The position numbers and the translations under genes are program-made. 64,000 nucleotides of DNA from an uncultured Solirubrobacterales bacterium (GTDB lineage Bacteria > Actinomycetota > Thermoleophilia > Solirubrobacterales > Solirubrobacteraceae), in NCBI GenBank assembly GCA_963794715.1, contig CAWCEY010000009.1, positions 94,385 to 158,384 of the forward strand, in the 5' to 3' direction. The notes under the pieces were generated by a model that was not told the DNA's origin, did not search any database, and was given only the letters and a program-made list of their open reading frames with translations. Of this stretch, positions 2,697 to 51,530 are shown one piece after another (position 1 is the stretch's first letter; each line of letters begins with the position of its first letter).

Positions 2697-3407
2697 GTGT
2701 CGCCCGACGGCGCAGATGACAGCTCCGGCCCCGGGGGCGCGCGCGCGGCGGGCGCCCGCTCCTCGGAGCACCGCTACGGCATCGTGCTCGCGCTCACGAT
2801 CCTCGCCGTGCTCTTTTCGATCCTCGCGCCCGACACCCCCTTCGGCCGCGCCGTCGCGGTGGTGCTCCAGGGCGCGATGCTGTTTGCGGTGATCGTCACC
2901 GCGCGCGAGGGCGGGCAGGATCTGGCCGCGCGCCGGCTGGCCGCGGCGCTGACGGTGGCGGTGATCCTCGGCCTGGCCGTGCTGGTCGGGTTGAACGTCG
3001 TTCCGCGGTGGGTCGGCGCAATCGCCACCGCCGGCGCGGTGATGGCGGTGCTGGTCGTGCTCACGCGCGGGATCGTGCGACTGATCCGTGAGCGTGGTGT
3101 GACCGTGCAGGCAGTCGCGGGCGCGCTCACCACCTACCTGCTGATCGGCCTGGAGTTCGCGCTCGTGGCGCGCGTGATAGTGAGTATCGGCCCCCACCAG
3201 TACTTCGAGCAGGTCACCAACGCCGCGGTCACGCAGAGCCAGGAGATCTACTTCAGCTTCACCACGCTCACCACCACCGGTTATGGAGATCTCACGCCTC
3301 TCCTCAGCATCGGGCGCGCGCTTTCGGTGCTGGAGATGCTCGTCGGCCAGATCTACCTCGTGACCGTGATCGGGTTGCTCGTCGGCAACCTCCGCCGCAG
3401 CCCCTGA
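2697..3407 (+). CDS. Potassium channel family protein (several TM helices plus pore loop)
   Basis: YFSFTTLTTTGYGDLTP selectivity-filter signature; hydrophobic helices. Confidence 0.85.
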   Translation: MSPDGADDSSGPGGARAAGARSSEHRYGIVLALTILAVLFSILAPDTPFGRAVAVVLQGAMLFAVIVTAREGGQDLAARRLAAALTVAVILGLAVLVGLNVVPRWVGAIATAGAVMAVLVVLTRGIVRLIRERGVTVQAVAGALTTYLLIGLEFALVARVIVSIGPHQYFEQVTNAAVTQSQEIYFSFTTLTTTGYGDLTPLLSIGRALSVLEMLVGQIYLVTVIGLLVGNLRRSP

Positions 3408-3423: not shown

Positions 3424-3596
3424 GGGTTGTGTATGAAACTTTTCAGGCCCAACCCTTCATTTTGTAAAGCGAGGGCATGGGCTTGATGTCTTCTTTTTCG
3501 ACCCCCAACCCTTCATTTTGTGAAGCAAGGGCATGGGCTTGATGTCTTCGTTTTGGACCCCAACCCTTCATTTTGTAAAGGGTTGGGGTCCAAAAA
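3424..3596. repeat. AT-rich composite repeat: three units at 55-56 bp spacing, ending in a hairpin
   Basis: CCCAACCCTTCATTTTGT(A/G)AAG recurs at 3448, 3504 and 3559. Terminal inverted repeat TTTTGGACCCCAACCCTT...AAGGGTTGGGGTCCAAAA. Confidence 0.85.
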
Positions 3597-3686
3597 GAGA
3601 GATATGTCACCGCTCGCACTCCGTCGGCCACTCGTTGGCGCCGGCGTCGTTGCTCGGCCGTTCGTTGGCGACAGGGTCGTTGCTGT

Positions 3687-4517
3687 ATGGTCGCGCCCGT
3701 GAGCCCACCACTCATCGCGTTGATCACCGGCGCCTCCAGCGGGATCGGCGAGGCGACCGCGCGGCGACTGGCACGGGAGCCCGGCGCGCGGCTGGTGCTG
3801 GTGGCGCGCCGCGAGGAGCGCCTGCGCGCGCTCGCCGCCACGCTGCCCGCCGAGTGCAGCACGCTCGCGCTCGACCTCACCGACGAGGACGCGCCCGCGC
3901 GCGTGCTGGCGCATGTGCGCGAGCAGTACGGAGGGCGCCTGACCATGCTCGTGAACAACGCCGGCGCGGCCTGGCGCGCGCCCTTCGGGGAGGGAGGCTA
4001 CGACAACGTGCGCCAGACGATGACGCTCAACTTCGATGCGCCCGTGCGCCTCACCGAGGCGCTGCTGCCGCTGCTGCGCGAGAGCGCGCCGAGCGCGATC
4101 GTCAACGTCTCTAGTACCGCCGCGCGGGTGACGCGTCCCGGCACCGGCGCCTACTCGGCGAGCAAGTTCGCGCTCACCGGCTGGAGCGACGCGCTGTATG
4201 CCGAGGAGCACGCCCACGGCGTCCACGTCGGCACGGTGTTCCCCGGGTTCGTCGCCACCGAGGGCTTCCCCGCCCGCGAGCTGCTCGCGCGCCCGCAAAC
4301 GGCCTGGATCGTCTCCACGCCCGACCGGGTCGCCGAGGCGATCGTGGAGGTCGGCCTCGGGCGCCGCGCGGAGCGCTACGTGCCGCGCCCCTACTTCCTG
4401 GCGGCGGTCGCGCGGCTGCTGCTCCCCGGGCTCGTGCGCCGCACGCTCACGCGCGGCAGCGCCGCGGTCCTCACCACTACAACCGGGGCTGAAGCGGAGG
4501 CTCGGAGCAGCCCATAG
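3687..4517 (+). CDS. Short-chain dehydrogenase/reductase
   Basis: ITGASSGIG, NNAG, and YSASK catalytic motif. Confidence 0.93.
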   Translation: MVAPVSPPLIALITGASSGIGEATARRLAREPGARLVLVARREERLRALAATLPAECSTLALDLTDEDAPARVLAHVREQYGGRLTMLVNNAGAAWRAPFGEGGYDNVRQTMTLNFDAPVRLTEALLPLLRESAPSAIVNVSSTAARVTRPGTGAYSASKFALTGWSDALYAEEHAHGVHVGTVFPGFVATEGFPARELLARPQTAWIVSTPDRVAEAIVEVGLGRRAERYVPRPYFLAAVARLLLPGLVRRTLTRGSAAVLTTTTGAEAEARSSP

Positions 4518-4708
4518 CCGGAGGCTCGGAACAGCCCATAGCCGGAGGCTCGGAACAGCCCATAGCCGGAGGCTCGGAACAGCCCATAGCCGGAGGCTCG
4601 GAACAGCCCATAGCCGGAGGCTCGGAACAGCCCATAGCCGGAGGCTCGGAACAGCCCATAGCCGGAGGCTCGGAACAGCCCATAGCCGGAGGCTCGGAAC
4701 AGCCCATA
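4493..4708. repeat. 24-bp tandem repeat GCCGGAGGCTCGGAACAGCCCATA: 8 perfect copies plus 1 degenerate
   Basis: Units start at 4517, 4541 ... 4685 with no spacers. The degenerate copy at 4493-4516 supplies the SDR stop codon. Confidence 0.97.
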
Positions 4709-5025
4709 GGCGTACGCTCAGGCAATGAGACGGCGTGCGGCCCAGGCAGCCCGGGGACGAACGCTCGGCCAGCGAGCTGCCGGGCAGCTCGTGCCAACCT
4801 CTCGACCGTCCGATGAGCCGAACACAGGCCGCGCAGGTTTCTCGGCTTGGCGCACGAATAAAGAAGCGGATCGCGAGAGATAACTGTCGAATAACGATCT
4901 GCCCGCCCGGGTAGAGGAAGTTCTCGGGTAGAGCAACTTATGGGCCTCCGATGGGCTCCAACAGGGGCGCACCGCCGTGTACAGGGTGGACGAACGTGCC
5001 CGTCGAGCCACTCCGCCAGGAATAA

Positions 5026-28501: not shown

Positions 28502-28900
28502 CTACCCCGTGAGCGCCGAGGCGATGTCCGTGTGCCGGAAGTCCTCGCCCTTGAACAGCAGCGGCTCTCCCGTCGTCCTTGCCAGCGCGTAGGAGAAGCA
28601 GTCGCCGAAATTCAGGCCGGCAGGGTGGCCGCTGCCCTTCCCGAAATCGCGGTAGGCCTCGCGCGCGATCCGCGCATGGCTCGCCGTCACCGGTTCGATC
28701 CCGATGCCCGCGGTGATTAATAGCTCGTCCACGCGCCGGCTGGCGATCGCATCCCCCGCGCGGTCGATGACCGCCCCCACCTCCACATAGCTGGCCGCGG
28801 ACAGCCGACGTACGCTCGCCGACTCGATCGCATCCGCGCATGCCGCTGCCTCCGGCTCGGCGCGAAGGATCGCGATGATGGCCGAGGTGTCGAGGATCAC
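28502..28900 (-). CDS. vapC: VapC PIN-domain toxin
   Basis: [11 protein letters not shown]; [12 protein letters not shown]. Confidence 0.95.
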
Positions 28901-29225: not shown

Positions 29226-30026
29226 CTACCTCTGTTGCTCGACCAACGCCCCGGGCCCGACTTCGTCGATCGCGGCGTACCCGCTGAGCGCCATCGCCAG
29301 ATCGAGGTCGGCGAGGAACGAGCGCAGCACCTCGGCCACGCCCTGCGCGCCGCCCAGCGCGAGGCCCCAGATGTAGGGGCGGCCGAGCAGCACCGCGCGG
29401 GCGCCGAGCGCGAGCGCCTTCAGCGCGTCCGAGCCGGAGCGGATGCCGCTATCGAAGAGCACCTCGCAGCGGCCCTCAACGGCGGCCACCACGTCGGGCA
29501 GCGCGTCGAGCGCACCGACGGCGCCGTCCACCTGGCGCCCACCGTGGTTTGAGACCAGCACCCCCTGCACCCCGTGCTCGACCGCGAGACGTGCGTCGTC
29601 GGGGCGCAGAATGCCCTTCAGCACGATCGGCAGCTCGGTGCACTCGCGCAGGAACGCGAGGTCCTTCCAGGTGACGGCTGGGTTGGCGAACTGCCATGCC
29701 CAGTGGCCGATCGCGGCCTGCATGTTCTCCTCCGGCGGGGCCGGCAACGCCGCGCGGAAAACGGGGTCCTCCAAGTAGTTGCGGTTGCCCTCCCCCCACA
29801 GGAACGGCAGGAAGCCGTTCGTCAAATCAGCGGGGCGCCACCCGAGCAGCCACGTGTCGAGCGTCAGCACGATCGCGCTGTAACCGGCGCGCTCGGCGCG
29901 CTCCACGAAACTGCGCGCCAGCTATGTGGAGGTGGGGGCGGTCATCGACCGCGCGGGACGTTGTCCGCCCAGCCCGCGCAGGTAGATCTCGTACTGGTAG
30001 TTGGCGTAGGGGACCTGCTCGCTCAC
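29226..30026 (-). pseudogene. FMN-dependent alpha-hydroxy acid oxidase (lactate 2-monooxygenase-like) with internal deletion and in-frame stop
   Basis: N-terminus VSEQVPYANYQYEIYLRGL; C-half [32 protein letters not shown] at 29922-29924 lies inside a vapC-derived insert. Confidence 0.88.
29918..29957. repeat. 40-bp perfect inverted copy of vapC bases 28755-28794
   Basis: CCCGCGCGGTCGATGACCGCCCCCACCTCCACATAGCTGG at 28755 (+); its reverse complement at 29918. Confidence 0.95.
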
Positions 30027-31299: not shown

Positions 31300-31317
31300 A
31301 CGGTCCTCCTCGGTCAC

Positions 31318-31486
31318 CGCCTACGGGGTTAGCTGTCGGGCTCACGCGCCGCCGGCGCACGATGGCGTGCGTCGGCGCGGGCGTTACGGCCGCATCAGCG
31401 GCCGATTCGCCCCATCCGGACCGCTCTCTGGCGGTCCGGCAGTGGGTCCCCCGCTCGCCTCCAACGACGGAGGCGACTCGGCTGAA
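31318..31486 (-). ncRNA. c-di-AMP (ydaO/yuaA) riboswitch
   Basis: Minus strand reads GCCGAGUC...GCGGGGGACCCA...UGGGGCGAAUC...GAGCCCGACAGCUAACCCCGUAGGC; lies directly upstream of a cell-wall enzyme gene. Confidence 0.85.
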
Positions 31487-31692
31487 TCGAACTCGGCACG
31501 ATAGAGCGGCAGCCGCCCGTTTCAATGTGCGTTTGATCACAGATGGCCGCTGCACGCGCCCGATCAAGGGGGCGGCCGGTCAAAGACACGGGTTTTCTAC
31601 GCCTTCGCCACACGCACTTGAGAGCCCATTTGGAGTCGATTTCTCATCCGCGCGTTGACGGACGGCCTTCCAGCAGCGACAATCCACGCCCG

Positions 31693-37288: not shown

Positions 37289-37344
37289 CGCCTCGAAACT
37301 GGGGGAGGCATGGGGCGCGAGAGGCATACGCGCGAGAGGCGTTG

Positions 37345-37500
37345 GGTGTATGTAACTTTTTCAAGGCCGTGCGCAATTGCTATCGGCTTTGATTTTTTTC
37401 ATTACACCACCCACCCCTCCCACGTATATACCTTTGCAATAGAAGTGGCAAGCTCGTGCCACCATTCCACGTATATACGTTTGCTATAGGGGTGGCAGGA
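37345..37500. repeat. AT-rich palindromic element plus two 47-bp-period direct repeats between convergent genes
   Basis: GGTGTA...TCAAGGCCG...CGGCTTTGA...TACACC hairpin (37345-37408); CCACGTATATAC at 37420 and 37467. Confidence 0.75.
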
Positions 37501-39181
37501 GCTTGCCGGGATTCATGATCCCCGCGGGGTCCAGCTGGTGCTTGAGCGCGCGCAGCGCCTCCACCCCATGCGCGCCCAGCTCGCGCTCCATCCACGGCAG
37601 GTGGTCGCGCCCGACGCCGTGGTGGTGGGTGATGGTGCCGCCGCCGCGGACGATCGCGTCGCTGGCCGCGCGCTTCAGCGCCCGCCACTGCTCGATCTCC
37701 GCGCCCTCGCGCTGCCTGGCCAGCAGCGTGAAGTACAGCGAGGCGCCCGTCTCGTAGAGGTGCGAGACGTGGCACATCACCACGCCCTCGCTTCCCTGTG
37801 CGCGCAGCTCCCGCTCGATCGCGGAGCGTGTCTGCAGGTGCAGTTGGCGCAGGTTCGACCATGTTGTGGCGCTCTCCAGCGTCTCGACCATCACTCCGTG
37901 AGTGAGCAGCTCGTCGCGCAGGTAGGGCGCCGCGAAGCGATGCCGCCGCCACGCCTCCCCCGGCGAGCTGCCAAGCGGCAGTCCGCCGTGACCGCGCACC
38001 ACCTCGTGCGCTCGCGCTTTGGCGTGCCGCACCTCCTCCGCGGCGCCCTCGAACCCGAGGATCGCCAGGCACCCCTCGCCGTAGCCGCGCACGCGCAGGT
38101 AGGCCCTGCCGGCGCGGCTCTTGGCGCGGGCCTGCAGCGCGCGACGCATGCTTTCCCCCACCCCCTCCGCTCTCCCCGACCCCGCCGCCGCCTGCGCCTG
38201 CGCGAGCGACATGCGCGTCTCCGCCTCGTCGGACAGCCGCGTCACCGCCGGCGCCGCGTGCTCCTGGGCGAGCTCACGCAGGGCGTTCACGCCGGAGGGG
38301 AAGTCGGCGAAGAACGCGCCCTCAAAGCAGCGCTCGCGGGGCGCCGCGCGCACGCGCAGATCGAGCTCGCCGATCACTCCCAGCGCGCCCTCGGAGCCGA
38401 CCAGCAGCCCGCGCAGATCCGGCCCAGCCGCGCTCGCCGGCCGCGCCGGGAGCGCGATTTGACCAGCGGGCGCGGTGAGGCGGATCCCGACCACCAGCTC
38501 CTCGAAGCGCCCATACCCGGTCGAGGACTGCCCGGCCCCGCCGCTTGCCGCGCAGCCCCCCAGCGAGACATACTCAAACGACTGCGGGAAGTGCCCCAGC
38601 GTCAGGCCCACCTCCGCCAGACGCCGCTCCAGCGCGGGCGCGCGCATCCCCGCCTGAACGGTGGCCAGGCGCGACTCGCCGTCGATGTTCACGAGTGCCG
38701 CCAACTCGCGCATGTCGAGCGCGATCACCGCCGCGTGCTGGCCTCTGAGCGGCGCCACGCCCCCCACCACGCTGGTGCCGCCACCGAACGGCACCACCGC
38801 GATCGAGTTGCCAGCGCAAATCTGCAGCAACGGCCCCACCTGCTGGGGGTCGCTCGGATACAGCACCGCGTCGGGCGCCTCCCCCGGCTCGCCCGCCCGC
38901 ACACGTAGGAGGTCGGGATAACTCTTGCCGGCGGCGTGCGCCACGCGCTCGGCGCGATCGTCGCGCACGGCGTGCGCCCCCAATAGCGCGCGCAACCGCG
39001 CGCCGGCGCCCTCGGGGAGTTCCACGGGGGGCAGCTGTACGCGCGCGAGCGCCACCGGCGGACGCGGTTGGGGCGAGGTCCCGATCGTCTCCTCCAGCAG
39101 CCGCAACATTCTCGGCCCCACAGCCGGCGCGCGGTCCGGATCGCCCCACCCCCACCAGCGCATCGCGGGCGCGTCAGCCAT
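37484..39181 (-). CDS. FAD-binding oxidoreductase, alkylglycerone-phosphate synthase-like
   Basis: VVPFGGGTSVVGG; GHFPQSFE; THHHGVG; DPAGIMNPGKL. Confidence 0.88.
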   Translation of the reverse strand: MADAPAMRWWGWGDPDRAPAVGPRMLRLLEETIGTSPQPRPPVALARVQLPPVELPEGAGARLRALLGAHAVRDDRAERVAHAAGKSYPDLLRVRAGEPGEAPDAVLYPSDPQQVGPLLQICAGNSIAVVPFGGGTSVVGGVAPLRGQHAAVIALDMRELAALVNIDGESRLATVQAGMRAPALERRLAEVGLTLGHFPQSFEYVSLGGCAASGGAGQSSTGYGRFEELVVGIRLTAPAGQIALPARPASAAGPDLRGLLVGSEGALGVIGELDLRVRAAPRERCFEGAFFADFPSGVNALRELAQEHAAPAVTRLSDEAETRMSLAQAQAAAGSGRAEGVGESMRRALQARAKSRAGRAYLRVRGYGEGCLAILGFEGAAEEVRHAKARAHEVVRGHGGLPLGSSPGEAWRRHRFAAPYLRDELLTHGVMVETLESATTWSNLRQLHLQTRSAIERELRAQGSEGVVMCHVSHLYETGASLYFTLLARQREGAEIEQWRALKRAASDAIVRGGGTITHHHGVGRDHLPWMERELGAHGVEALRALKHQLDPAGIMNPGKLLPPL

Positions 39182-39261
39182 CGAGACTCCGCCTCCGCAG
39201 TCGCCCCCGCGGTCGCGGTTTCCGGGCGCGCGGCGATGACTCGCGGGCCGACTGGGGGGCC

Positions 39262-39699
39262 TCAGCCAACGACCCGCTCCAGCCCGTCGAGCGCCTCGTC
39301 GAGCAGGTTGCCGGCCGCGCTGCGCACGCGGCTGGCCCCGAGGTTGGCGAACACGCCTCGCAGCTTCTGGCGCAGCTCGATCGTCACCTTGGTGCCGGCA
39401 CCGGCCGCTTCCAGGCGCAGCTCGGTGTGCGCGGCCGACAGCACGCGCGCGAAGGGGGTGTCCTGCACCCGCTGCTCCCACTTCAACGTCAGCGCCCGCT
39501 CGTCCGCTTCGGTGTGGAAATCAGCCCGCACCAACCTGCCGTTGCGACTGGCGAACACCATCGTGAAAGCGTTCCGCTCGACGTCCTCGACGCGTGTGAC
39601 GCGCGGCCACCATCGCGGCAGGTGGGCGGGGTCGGCGATCAGCTCCCACACCTCGCCGGCGGGCGCGTCCACCGTGCGGGTTCGTTCGGTGGTGGGCAC
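39262..39699 (-). CDS. SRPBCC (polyketide cyclase/dehydrase-like) protein
   Basis: VDAPAGEVWELIADPAHLPRWWP. Confidence 0.85.
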   Translation of the reverse strand: MPTTERTRTVDAPAGEVWELIADPAHLPRWWPRVTRVEDVERNAFTMVFASRNGRLVRADFHTEADERALTLKWEQRVQDTPFARVLSAAHTELRLEAAGAGTKVTIELRQKLRGVFANLGASRVRSAAGNLLDEALDGLERVVG

Positions 39700-43489: not shown

Positions 43490-44101
<612 letters not shown>

Positions 44102-44121
44102 GCCATAGGTATACAGGGTGT

Positions 44122-44200
44122 GGGTATGTGTATCGATTTTAAAAGGCGTGCGCAATAGCAAACACCTTTTGAAAAGACAACATATACCCGCCCCCTCCTA
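44122..44200. repeat. AT-rich palindromic element related to 37345-37408
   Basis: GGGTATGTG...TTTTAAAAGGCGT GCGCAAT...ACACCTTTTGAAAA...CATATACCC, followed by a C-rich tail. Confidence 0.75.
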
Positions 44201-44244
44201 CCTATCTCTCCTCACTCCGGCCAACCTTCCCCTCAACCAGCGGT

Positions 44245-51426: not shown

Positions 51427-51470
51427 ATGGGTGCTCGAACTCACGAACGCGCCCCGCACACGTTGGCGCA

Positions 51471-51496
51471 CTTCATTTTGTAAATGGTTGGAGTCC
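51471..51496. repeat. Solo copy of the 3566-3591 AT-rich unit
   Basis: CTTCATTTTGTAAATGGTTGGAGTCC, 24/26 identical to CTTCATTTTGTAAAGGGTTGGGGTCC. Confidence 0.75.
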
Positions 51497-51530
51497 GTTT
51501 CGATGACATCACTGCCCGCCCTGCCTGCCC

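Follow-up and report, generated by a model that had tools for sequence, protein, structure and literature searches.

Two related families of small palindromic intergenic repeats with rapid turnover in an uncultured Solirubrobacterales genus

AT-rich loci in the window

The window is the whole 64,000-nucleotide stretch analysed here, corresponding to C9:94385-158384 of G000, a 4.2-Mb assembly in 12 contigs. Its GC content is 68-70%, and four loci form its sharpest extragenic AT-rich dips. Their features are listed below in window coordinates, which are used throughout unless a contig is named; G194 is the relative used for most comparisons.

3424-3612, plus strand: locus 1, an array of family-1 repeats flanked by a K+ channel gene (2697-3407) and a leaderless SDR gene (3687-4517)
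3424-3447, plus strand: left arm of locus 1, part of the family-1 array
3453-3469, 3509-3525 and 3564-3580, plus strand: three core boxes of locus 1, CCCTTCATTTTGTRAAG, at spacings of 56 and 55 bp
3542-3605, no strand assigned: terminal full palindrome of the locus 1 array, GGACCCCAACCCTT-CATTTTGTA-AAGGGTTGGGGTCC with T-run and A-run arms
37289-37483, no strand assigned: locus 2, the whole stretch missing from G194, between a gene for an unknown protein and the convergent gene for a FAD-linked oxidase
37334-37427, plus strand: family-2 element of locus 2, core CGTGCGCAATTGCTATC at 37368-37384 (nhmmer E 6e-18; fold z = -2.6)
37415-37508, plus strand: 47-bp tandem duplication covering the element's right end together with the target sequence next to it
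44096-44244, no strand assigned: locus 3, between sodA and the convergent ispG
44096-44207, plus strand: element of a family-2 subfamily, GTATAGGCCATAGGTATAC..., core CGTGCGCAATAGCAAAC at 44147-44163, ...CCCCCTCCTACC (nhmmer E 2e-5; fold z = -3.5)
51469-51512, plus strand: locus 4, a decayed family-1 copy that has kept its core CACTTCATTTTGTAAAT and right arm and lost its left arm, between the minus-strand genes cdsA and dxr

At locus 1, TRF reports a 56-bp tandem array of 2.4 copies with 92% matches (3448-3580), nhmmer matches lie at 3432-3475, 3489-3527 and 3543-3590, and the right tail of the array is C-rich/ACAT. The region 3530-3606 folds as DNA at -23.5 kcal/mol (z = -7.3), with 0 of 200 shuffles equally good, and the internal units (3424-3560) show no fold (z = -0.4). 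Locus 4 likewise has no hairpin (z = +2.1), as a decayed half element. At locus 2, the element carries a left arm of the family-1 type (TGTATGTAACTTTTTCAAGG) on a family-2 core, and we therefore regard this copy as chimeric. The two units of the 47-bp pair (37415-37461 and 37462-37508) are 77% identical, and the FAD oxidase has its stop codon in the second (37484-37486, minus strand; gene 37484-39481, Pfam PF02913/PF01565). The SodA stop codon TAG (44099-44101) falls within the first bases of the locus 3 element.

The original prediction had described the four islands as a single dispersed family, and its specific observations all stand. By blastn, the unit at 3566-3591 recurs at 51471-51496 with 24 of 26 positions identical, and the left arms at 3424 and 37344, said to be alike, align at 22 of 28 positions. 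The segments 37345-37408 and 44122-44189, proposed to be homologous, have a common core CGTGCGCAAT(T/A)GC centred on GTGCGCAAT and are both matched by one nhmmer profile. Also borne out were the position of these two loci between convergent genes, the tandem arrays at two of the loci and the stop codon supplied to the oxidase, to which that of SodA can be added. The islands do share sequence, yet they belong to two related families with differing cores rather than to one. The shared left arm is real, given that some family-2 copies carry the family-1 type; the cores themselves are unrelated.

Three other features of the window were recorded. A 24-bp unit, CGGAGGCTCGGAACAGCCCATAGC, is repeated nine times with 99% identity at 4495-4709, overlapping the 3' end of the SDR gene and continuing past it; G194 seemingly has about five fewer copies (the count comes from overlapping blast blocks), and this apparent difference makes the repeat a second VNTR unrelated to the palindromic families. 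A perfect 41-nt inverted repeat occupies 28755-28795 and 29917-29957, with its arms 1121 nt apart, and G194 differs by about 390 nt just beyond it. A c-di-AMP (ydaO-type) riboswitch lies on the minus strand at 31304-31493 with 45 bits, above the Rfam gathering score, and is the one Rfam match in the window at that threshold.

Copies and architecture of the two families

Family 1, represented in the window by loci 1 and 4, has about 105 copies at 58 loci of the 4.2-Mb genome. Its core is CCAACCCTTCATTTTGTRAAG(T)GGTTGG, and the 17-mer occurs 104 times at up to two mismatches, compared with no occurrences of a reversed 21-mer control, which excludes chance AT-rich islands. The nhmmer profile gives 108 matches for family 1 and the corresponding search 58 for family 2 (both strands counted), so the further genomic copies that had been anticipated do exist. 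A single family-1 element is a palindrome of about 80 nt and reads, from left to right, G-rich flank, TGTGYATGTACTTTTCGGaCCCC, core, GGGGcCG.TTGAAAAGACATCtCC and C-rich flank. Most loci hold a single unit, and 21 of the 58 are head-to-tail arrays of 2-6 units with a period of 54-56 bp. The repeated unit of these arrays consists of left arm and core, and the right arm is found on the last unit only; consequently, only the last unit folds. The terminal units have a mean z of -2.6 (59 units), reaching -7.7. Conservation is highest at the centre (0.8-0.99 in the core) and lower in the arms, there are no sharp ends, and two arms of the same element show no more complementarity than arms drawn from different elements, so that no selection on the hairpin was detected from compensatory covariation. 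A CRISPR array was considered as an alternative identity for the arrays and rejected because the stretches between the cores, which would be the spacers, are near-identical within each array.

Family 2 comprises loci 2 and 3 and has the core CGTGCGCAATTGCTATCGG, with 22 copies at up to two mismatches and about 28 recognizable ones (about 25-30). Complete copies measure 122-127 nt, run from GTATAGCCATTGCA to ACTATCGCTATAC and have inverted-repeat ends, which read GTATAGCC.../...GCTATAC in eight complete copies. The copies are about 82% identical to one another; some have a family-1-type left arm, as at 37334-37427, and others a core that is inverted relative to the arms. Both families follow a common plan of G-rich flank, AT-rich arm, GC core, AT-rich arm and C-rich flank. 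A further family-2 copy lies just beyond the end of the window, at 64119-64215 (G000 C9:158503-158599), and is missing from G194.

Elements of both families are almost confined to intergenic spacers, where they show no fixed orientation; the neighbouring genes are tandem or convergent and, in fewer cases, divergent. For family 1, intergenic loci number 51 of 58, where about 22% would be expected (P ~1e-26), and the spacers comprise 39 tandem, 13 convergent and 6 divergent ones, the divergent being under-represented, with orientation balanced in tandem contexts (20 versus 19); all of these counts are approximate because they depend on a crude GC3-based gene caller. The genes downstream (atpD, rpsF, fliG, ku, tmk, ribF, nadC and others) have no common function. 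Read on the reverse strand, the family-1 core gives AAAATGAAGGGTTGGGG, and its ATG misleads longest-start ORF callers, which extend neighbouring genes to it and produce false N-termini beginning MKGWG.

Distribution across genomes

An exact scan for family 1 across 185,579 species, one genome each, returned at least 100 matches, and among the matches listed all were in about a dozen MAGs of the Solirubrobacterales/Solirubrobacteraceae. No exact match was found in 150 other genomes sampled evenly across the order. Within the genus, family 1 is present in 14 of 101 species at 1-98 copies (98, 85, 32 and 12 in four genomes and 1-5 elsewhere), and family 2 in seven of the 101, G000, G212, G234, G181 and G200 among them. 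Both families were thus found only in a subset of species of one uncultured soil genus of the Solirubrobacterales.

Neither family was matched in plasmid, phage or viral-contig collections. Rfam contains neither, returning at E<=1 just generic microRNA-hairpin models far below threshold, and our literature search found no paper on palindromic repeats in Solirubrobacterales. As far as the literature and Rfam searches show, both families are undescribed.

Turnover between relatives

G194 (MFD04428.bin.2.6) is syntenic with G000 across the whole window, with a block identity of 79-99.5%, mostly 94-98%, and about 95% overall. It carries 85 family-1 copies, with array lengths and some loci that differ from those of G000. 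The array at locus 1 has three units in G000 and four in G194, and G152, G200 and G214 have no element there; locus 4 is identical in G194. Unit number differs between the two genomes at this locus and at least six others. Of 20 family-1 loci in G194, 15 are common to G000, many with another unit number, and five lack a family-1 element at the corresponding site in G000; one such G194-only site is a clean 134-nt difference bounded by GCT...GCT.

For family 2 the difference is complete: 22 copies in G000 and none in G194, where 12 of 12 orthologous sites, namely both window loci and ten more, are empty. Together with the family-1 loci present in G194 only, these are the empty orthologous sites by which the mobility of the elements was to be judged. 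One of the family-2 sites is an 8-nt stop-to-start operon junction in G194, at which G000 has a 185-nt element. With the elements of loci 2 and 3 missing, the convergent genes of G194 are 7 and 93 nt apart and their ends differ. Inserted elements extend into the ends of genes, whose stop codons they replace. At locus 2, G212, G200, G152 and G172 have other spacer sequence and no family-2 element. The locus 3 element is missing from G194, G214, G172, G161, G152 and G200, whereas G212, a more distant genome, has it at this locus, with flanks that are 83-84% identical to those of G000 (G194, 91-93%). Recombinational transfer or repeated loss fits this pattern as well as transposition does. A clean empty-site comparison was confined to close relatives, the spacers of more distant ones being too diverged to align.

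Three spacers hold other sequence of note. After serS, G000 has a 2.1-kb insert of lower GC content (C2:450666-452781; L144:1667-3782) exactly where G194 has a four-unit family-1 array; the 657-aa ORF in this insert has no Pfam match. The spacer at G000 C11:98604-98827 contains a family-2 element, and its counterpart in G194 (L132) a family-1 element. The sodA-ispG spacer of G200 (L215, C32:2530-2900) holds clustered palindromes of high GC content with GCATGC at their centre (CCGGCGCATGCGCCGG, GACGTGCATGCACGTC and others), which represent a different REP-like family.

The location of many elements just past stop codons, the placing of two window loci between convergent genes and the strong hairpins would suit transcription terminators or stabilizing hairpins at mRNA 3' ends, alike by convergence or descent. 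We consider such a role extremely improbable, as an intrinsic terminator is a GC-rich hairpin followed by a U-run, and here a T-run precedes the stem and an A-run follows it on both strands, leaving no U-tail. A terminator consensus scan, like one for sigma-70 promoters, found nothing in the main palindromes. The internal units of the arrays are unfolded, elements also occupy divergent spacers, one copy sits inside the 8-nt operon junction, and G194 does without the element at every family-2 site compared.

Mobilization and classification

Multi-copy intergenic palindromes that are short, clustered and lineage-specific, and that leave no target duplication, as would be the case for HUH enzymes, recall REPs or REPINs moved by a RAYT (an IS200-like Y1 transposase). 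The original prediction had noted no cognate RAYT in the window. We searched with PF01797 and detected none in G000 or in the other carriers G194, G234 and G181, compared with detection in six control genomes, although this absence is not absolute since the MAGs are 64-91% complete. In addition, it is the centre (loop and inner stem) that is most conserved instead of two inverted arms around a spacer, and the arrays run head to tail rather than as inverted doublets. We therefore regard strict REPs or REPINs as very unlikely.

Classical MITEs, that is, internally deleted IS copies moved in trans by a DDE transposase, seem to us similarly improbable. The family-2 termini form inverted repeats about 122 nt apart, giving that family a defined length, insertion polymorphism is present, and IS630-, IS701-, IS256- and IS66-like elements occur in the genome. 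Against this, no flanking direct repeats were found at the eight complete family-2 copies, nor any target-site duplication at the cleanest insertions, the nearest candidate being a 3-nt GCT at one family-1 site. A genome self-blast identified eight multi-copy IS in G000 (IS110-, IS630-, IS701-, IS1634-, IS66- and IS256-like, types named by eye from translated ORFs), all with ends unrelated to those of the elements and none inserted in an element. Family 1 has no sharp ends at all, and its centre is more conserved than its termini. Lacking a target-site duplication and a parent IS, the elements do not earn a strict REP or MITE label.

With further copies, empty orthologous sites and array lengths that vary between G000 and G194, the proposal of a small non-autonomous mobile or REP-like family holds, with three qualifications: there are two families, no RAYT accompanies them in the four carrier genomes, and the strict labels do not apply. 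With no RAYT, target duplication, matching IS or terminator or promoter consensus, the elements behave like REPs, MITEs or MIRUs without fitting any of these definitions fully. They have the dispersed intergenic tandem arrays and copy-number variation of MIRU-VNTRs as well, without the fixed operon orientation. The pair of families is real, and although REP/BIME-, MITE- and MIRU-VNTR-like, it failed a defining test of each class.

How the copies move can be outlined as a proposal. They would be gained in trans by a process that leaves no target duplication, either a hairpin- or single-strand-based recombinase or the transfer of whole spacers by homologous recombination in a recombining population, and lost through microhomology deletion. 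The 54-56-bp arrays, in which left arm and core are repeated before one final right arm, would lengthen and shorten by slippage or unequal recombination. A recent burst from a single master within G000 does not fit, since family-2 copies at about 82% identity are far more diverged than G000 is from G194. Most sites of gain or loss also differ in unique, non-repeated sequence beside the element. This, the missing target duplication, the divergence of the copies, the G212 pattern and the mosaic identity between genomes suggest that whole-spacer homologous exchange and deletion weigh as much as new insertion.

A redox-regulator box in the family-1 core

One family-1-like site, C2:642152, is directly upstream of a gene (C2:642168-642551) for a 127-aa HxlR-family regulator (PF01638) with an N-terminal Cys typical of thiol sensors. 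Short inverted repeats in their own promoters are known binding sites of HxlR/DUF24 regulators (PMC3351151). The upstream regions of hxlR orthologues in 30 genomes of the genus, almost all of them repeat-free, have a common block, [T/C]ACTTCAnTTGGTAAAGTAA, which is a 7-5-7 palindrome that includes the -10 hexamer. We derived a PWM from the regions preceding hxlR in 27 species, leaving out G000, G181 and G172, and scanned G000 with it. The best match was the hxlR promoter, and 20 of the 23 matches at 16 bits or more had a family-1-like core (two matches for the reversed-PWM control). Among matches lacking such a core, the best precede trxA, at a distance of 40 nt, and trxB.

In its trx form, TACTWYACWTTGTATAGTA, the box is found in 33 of 41 genomes of the genus at 1-3 sites each, with no control matches. 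Of 30 sites fetched, 29 precede trxB (17), trxA (10) or hxlR (2) by 1-126 nt. In G000, the conserved 19-bp box TACT(T/A)(C/T)A-N-TT(G/T)GTA(A/T)AGTA is found upstream of hxlR, trxA and trxB at C2:642140-642180, C8:84356-84374 and C11:167548-167567; our literature search found no description of it. From its location across the genus, the box defines a small conserved set of redox genes, a candidate thiol-redox regulon. In G172, the left half of the box (GCTCCCACGCTTCATTTGCGTAGAA) is repeated as three 25-nt tandem copies in the hxlR promoter (L147), upstream of the intact box.

The family-1 core differs from the box at about two of the 19 degenerate positions. In its commonest variant the A at -11 is replaced by G, which destroys the -10 hexamer and makes the palindrome perfect (CTTCA-N5-TGAAG), and some non-carrier species already have CCAAC...GGTTGG around their hxlR box (L154). 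Family 1 most likely took its core from the promoter/operator box of the hxlR-family regulator gene, a box that trxA and trxB also have. A core of this origin may still be bound by the regulator, which raises the possibility that family 1 is a repeat that spreads near-consensus sites of a redox regulator.

Were the elements selected as cis-regulatory sites, rather than being selfish or neutral, they would be extra operators through which the thiol-redox HxlR-type regulator controls about 50 additional transcription units, or else a deliberate decoy array. Genome-wide, the hxlR/trxA/trxB box finds its best match in the family-1 core, and a perfect 5-5-5 palindrome that has lost the -10 A is what would be expected of a pure binding site. 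The core also diverges less than the arms between orthologous copies in G000 and G194 (2.1%, 9/420, versus 5.1%, 38/750, in 15 units; ~p 0.01), a difference that is not significant against the outer flanks. We nevertheless find selection of this kind unlikely. Most cores score 12-17 bits, as opposed to 22-29 for real boxes, and lack the outer T-A of TACT...AGTA; 13 of the 58 loci are between convergent genes and just six are in divergent, that is promoter, spacers; the genes downstream form no coherent set of targets; and about a quarter of the loci differ between genomes that are 95% identical.

A related and somewhat bolder proposal, which we offer tentatively and would not expect to hold, is that family 1 arose from the thiol-redox HxlR-family promoter/operator and is still bound, so that about 100 extra sites, some of them phased in 55-bp arrays, titrate the regulator or recruit new genes. 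If this were true, the load of regulator sites would change quickly between strains while the native regulon is just hxlR, trxA and trxB, and a bacterial repeat element would be spreading a transcription-factor site, moved with neither a RAYT nor a DDE transposase.

Overall interpretation and comparison with known systems

The reading that we consider likely is that the islands represent two related repeat families, small, palindromic, non-coding and non-autonomous, restricted to a subset of one genus, which vary in presence and array length and replace stop codons where they insert, the family-1 core most likely deriving from the hxlR box. Most copies are probably neutral or selfish passengers, tolerated at gene ends. 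These are two undescribed repeat families in an uncultured, very GC-rich actinobacterial soil lineage. A turnover of 22 versus 0 copies at 95% identity, with the usual mobilizing genes lacking, makes this lineage useful for studying how repeats spread. The families reshape gene ends, as in the new stop codons of the FAD oxidase and SodA, and their arrays offer ready VNTR markers with which strains in metagenomes can be typed. The similarity of core and box connects a repeat family with a stress regulon in a way that can be tested directly, the small candidate trxA/trxB/hxlR regulon being first defined in this group here.

Most known small palindromic repeats come from Proteobacteria, Neisseria and mycobacteria. 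Bacterial MITEs such as Correia/NEMIS of Neisseria, RUP, ERIC and Nezha are intergenic, 100-150 nt long and have inverted ends, with insertion polymorphism among strains, and they can alter gene ends or carry promoters or protein-binding sites (IHF in Correia). The families described here differ from them in having no TA or other target duplication and no parent IS with the same ends, and in forming arrays. MIRUs lack palindromic structure, follow the orientation of the operon and contain small ORFs that overlap the flanking stop and start codons. The MIRU-VNTRs of Mycobacterium tuberculosis (PMC3635867) nonetheless share with our families an actinobacterial host, units of 40-100 bp, dispersed intergenic tandem arrays and a copy number that varies among close relatives, whereas here orientation is free, single units predominate among the loci and the arrays end in a long hairpin.

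The REP/BIME/REPIN elements of Enterobacteria and Pseudomonas (PMC3116915, PMC3337134) are similar in being short imperfect intergenic palindromes with tens to hundreds of copies, clustered, lineage-restricted and free of target duplication. In contrast to these, no RAYT accompanies our families in the four carriers, the arms are AT-rich in a 68% GC genome, the centre and not the arms is most conserved, and arrays of 54-56 bp run head to tail in place of inverted doublets; REPINs also persist for long periods by vertical descent, whereas these families turn over rapidly. Finally, the operators of MarR/DUF24 (HxlR-family) regulators such as HypR and YodB (PMC3351151) resemble the box discussed above in being a short inverted repeat over the regulator's own promoter with redox genes as targets. 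Our box (TACTTCA-N5-TAAAGTA) and its putative regulon (hxlR, trxA, trxB) differ in that they come from comparative genomics and in that about 100 near-copies of the box ride on a repeat.
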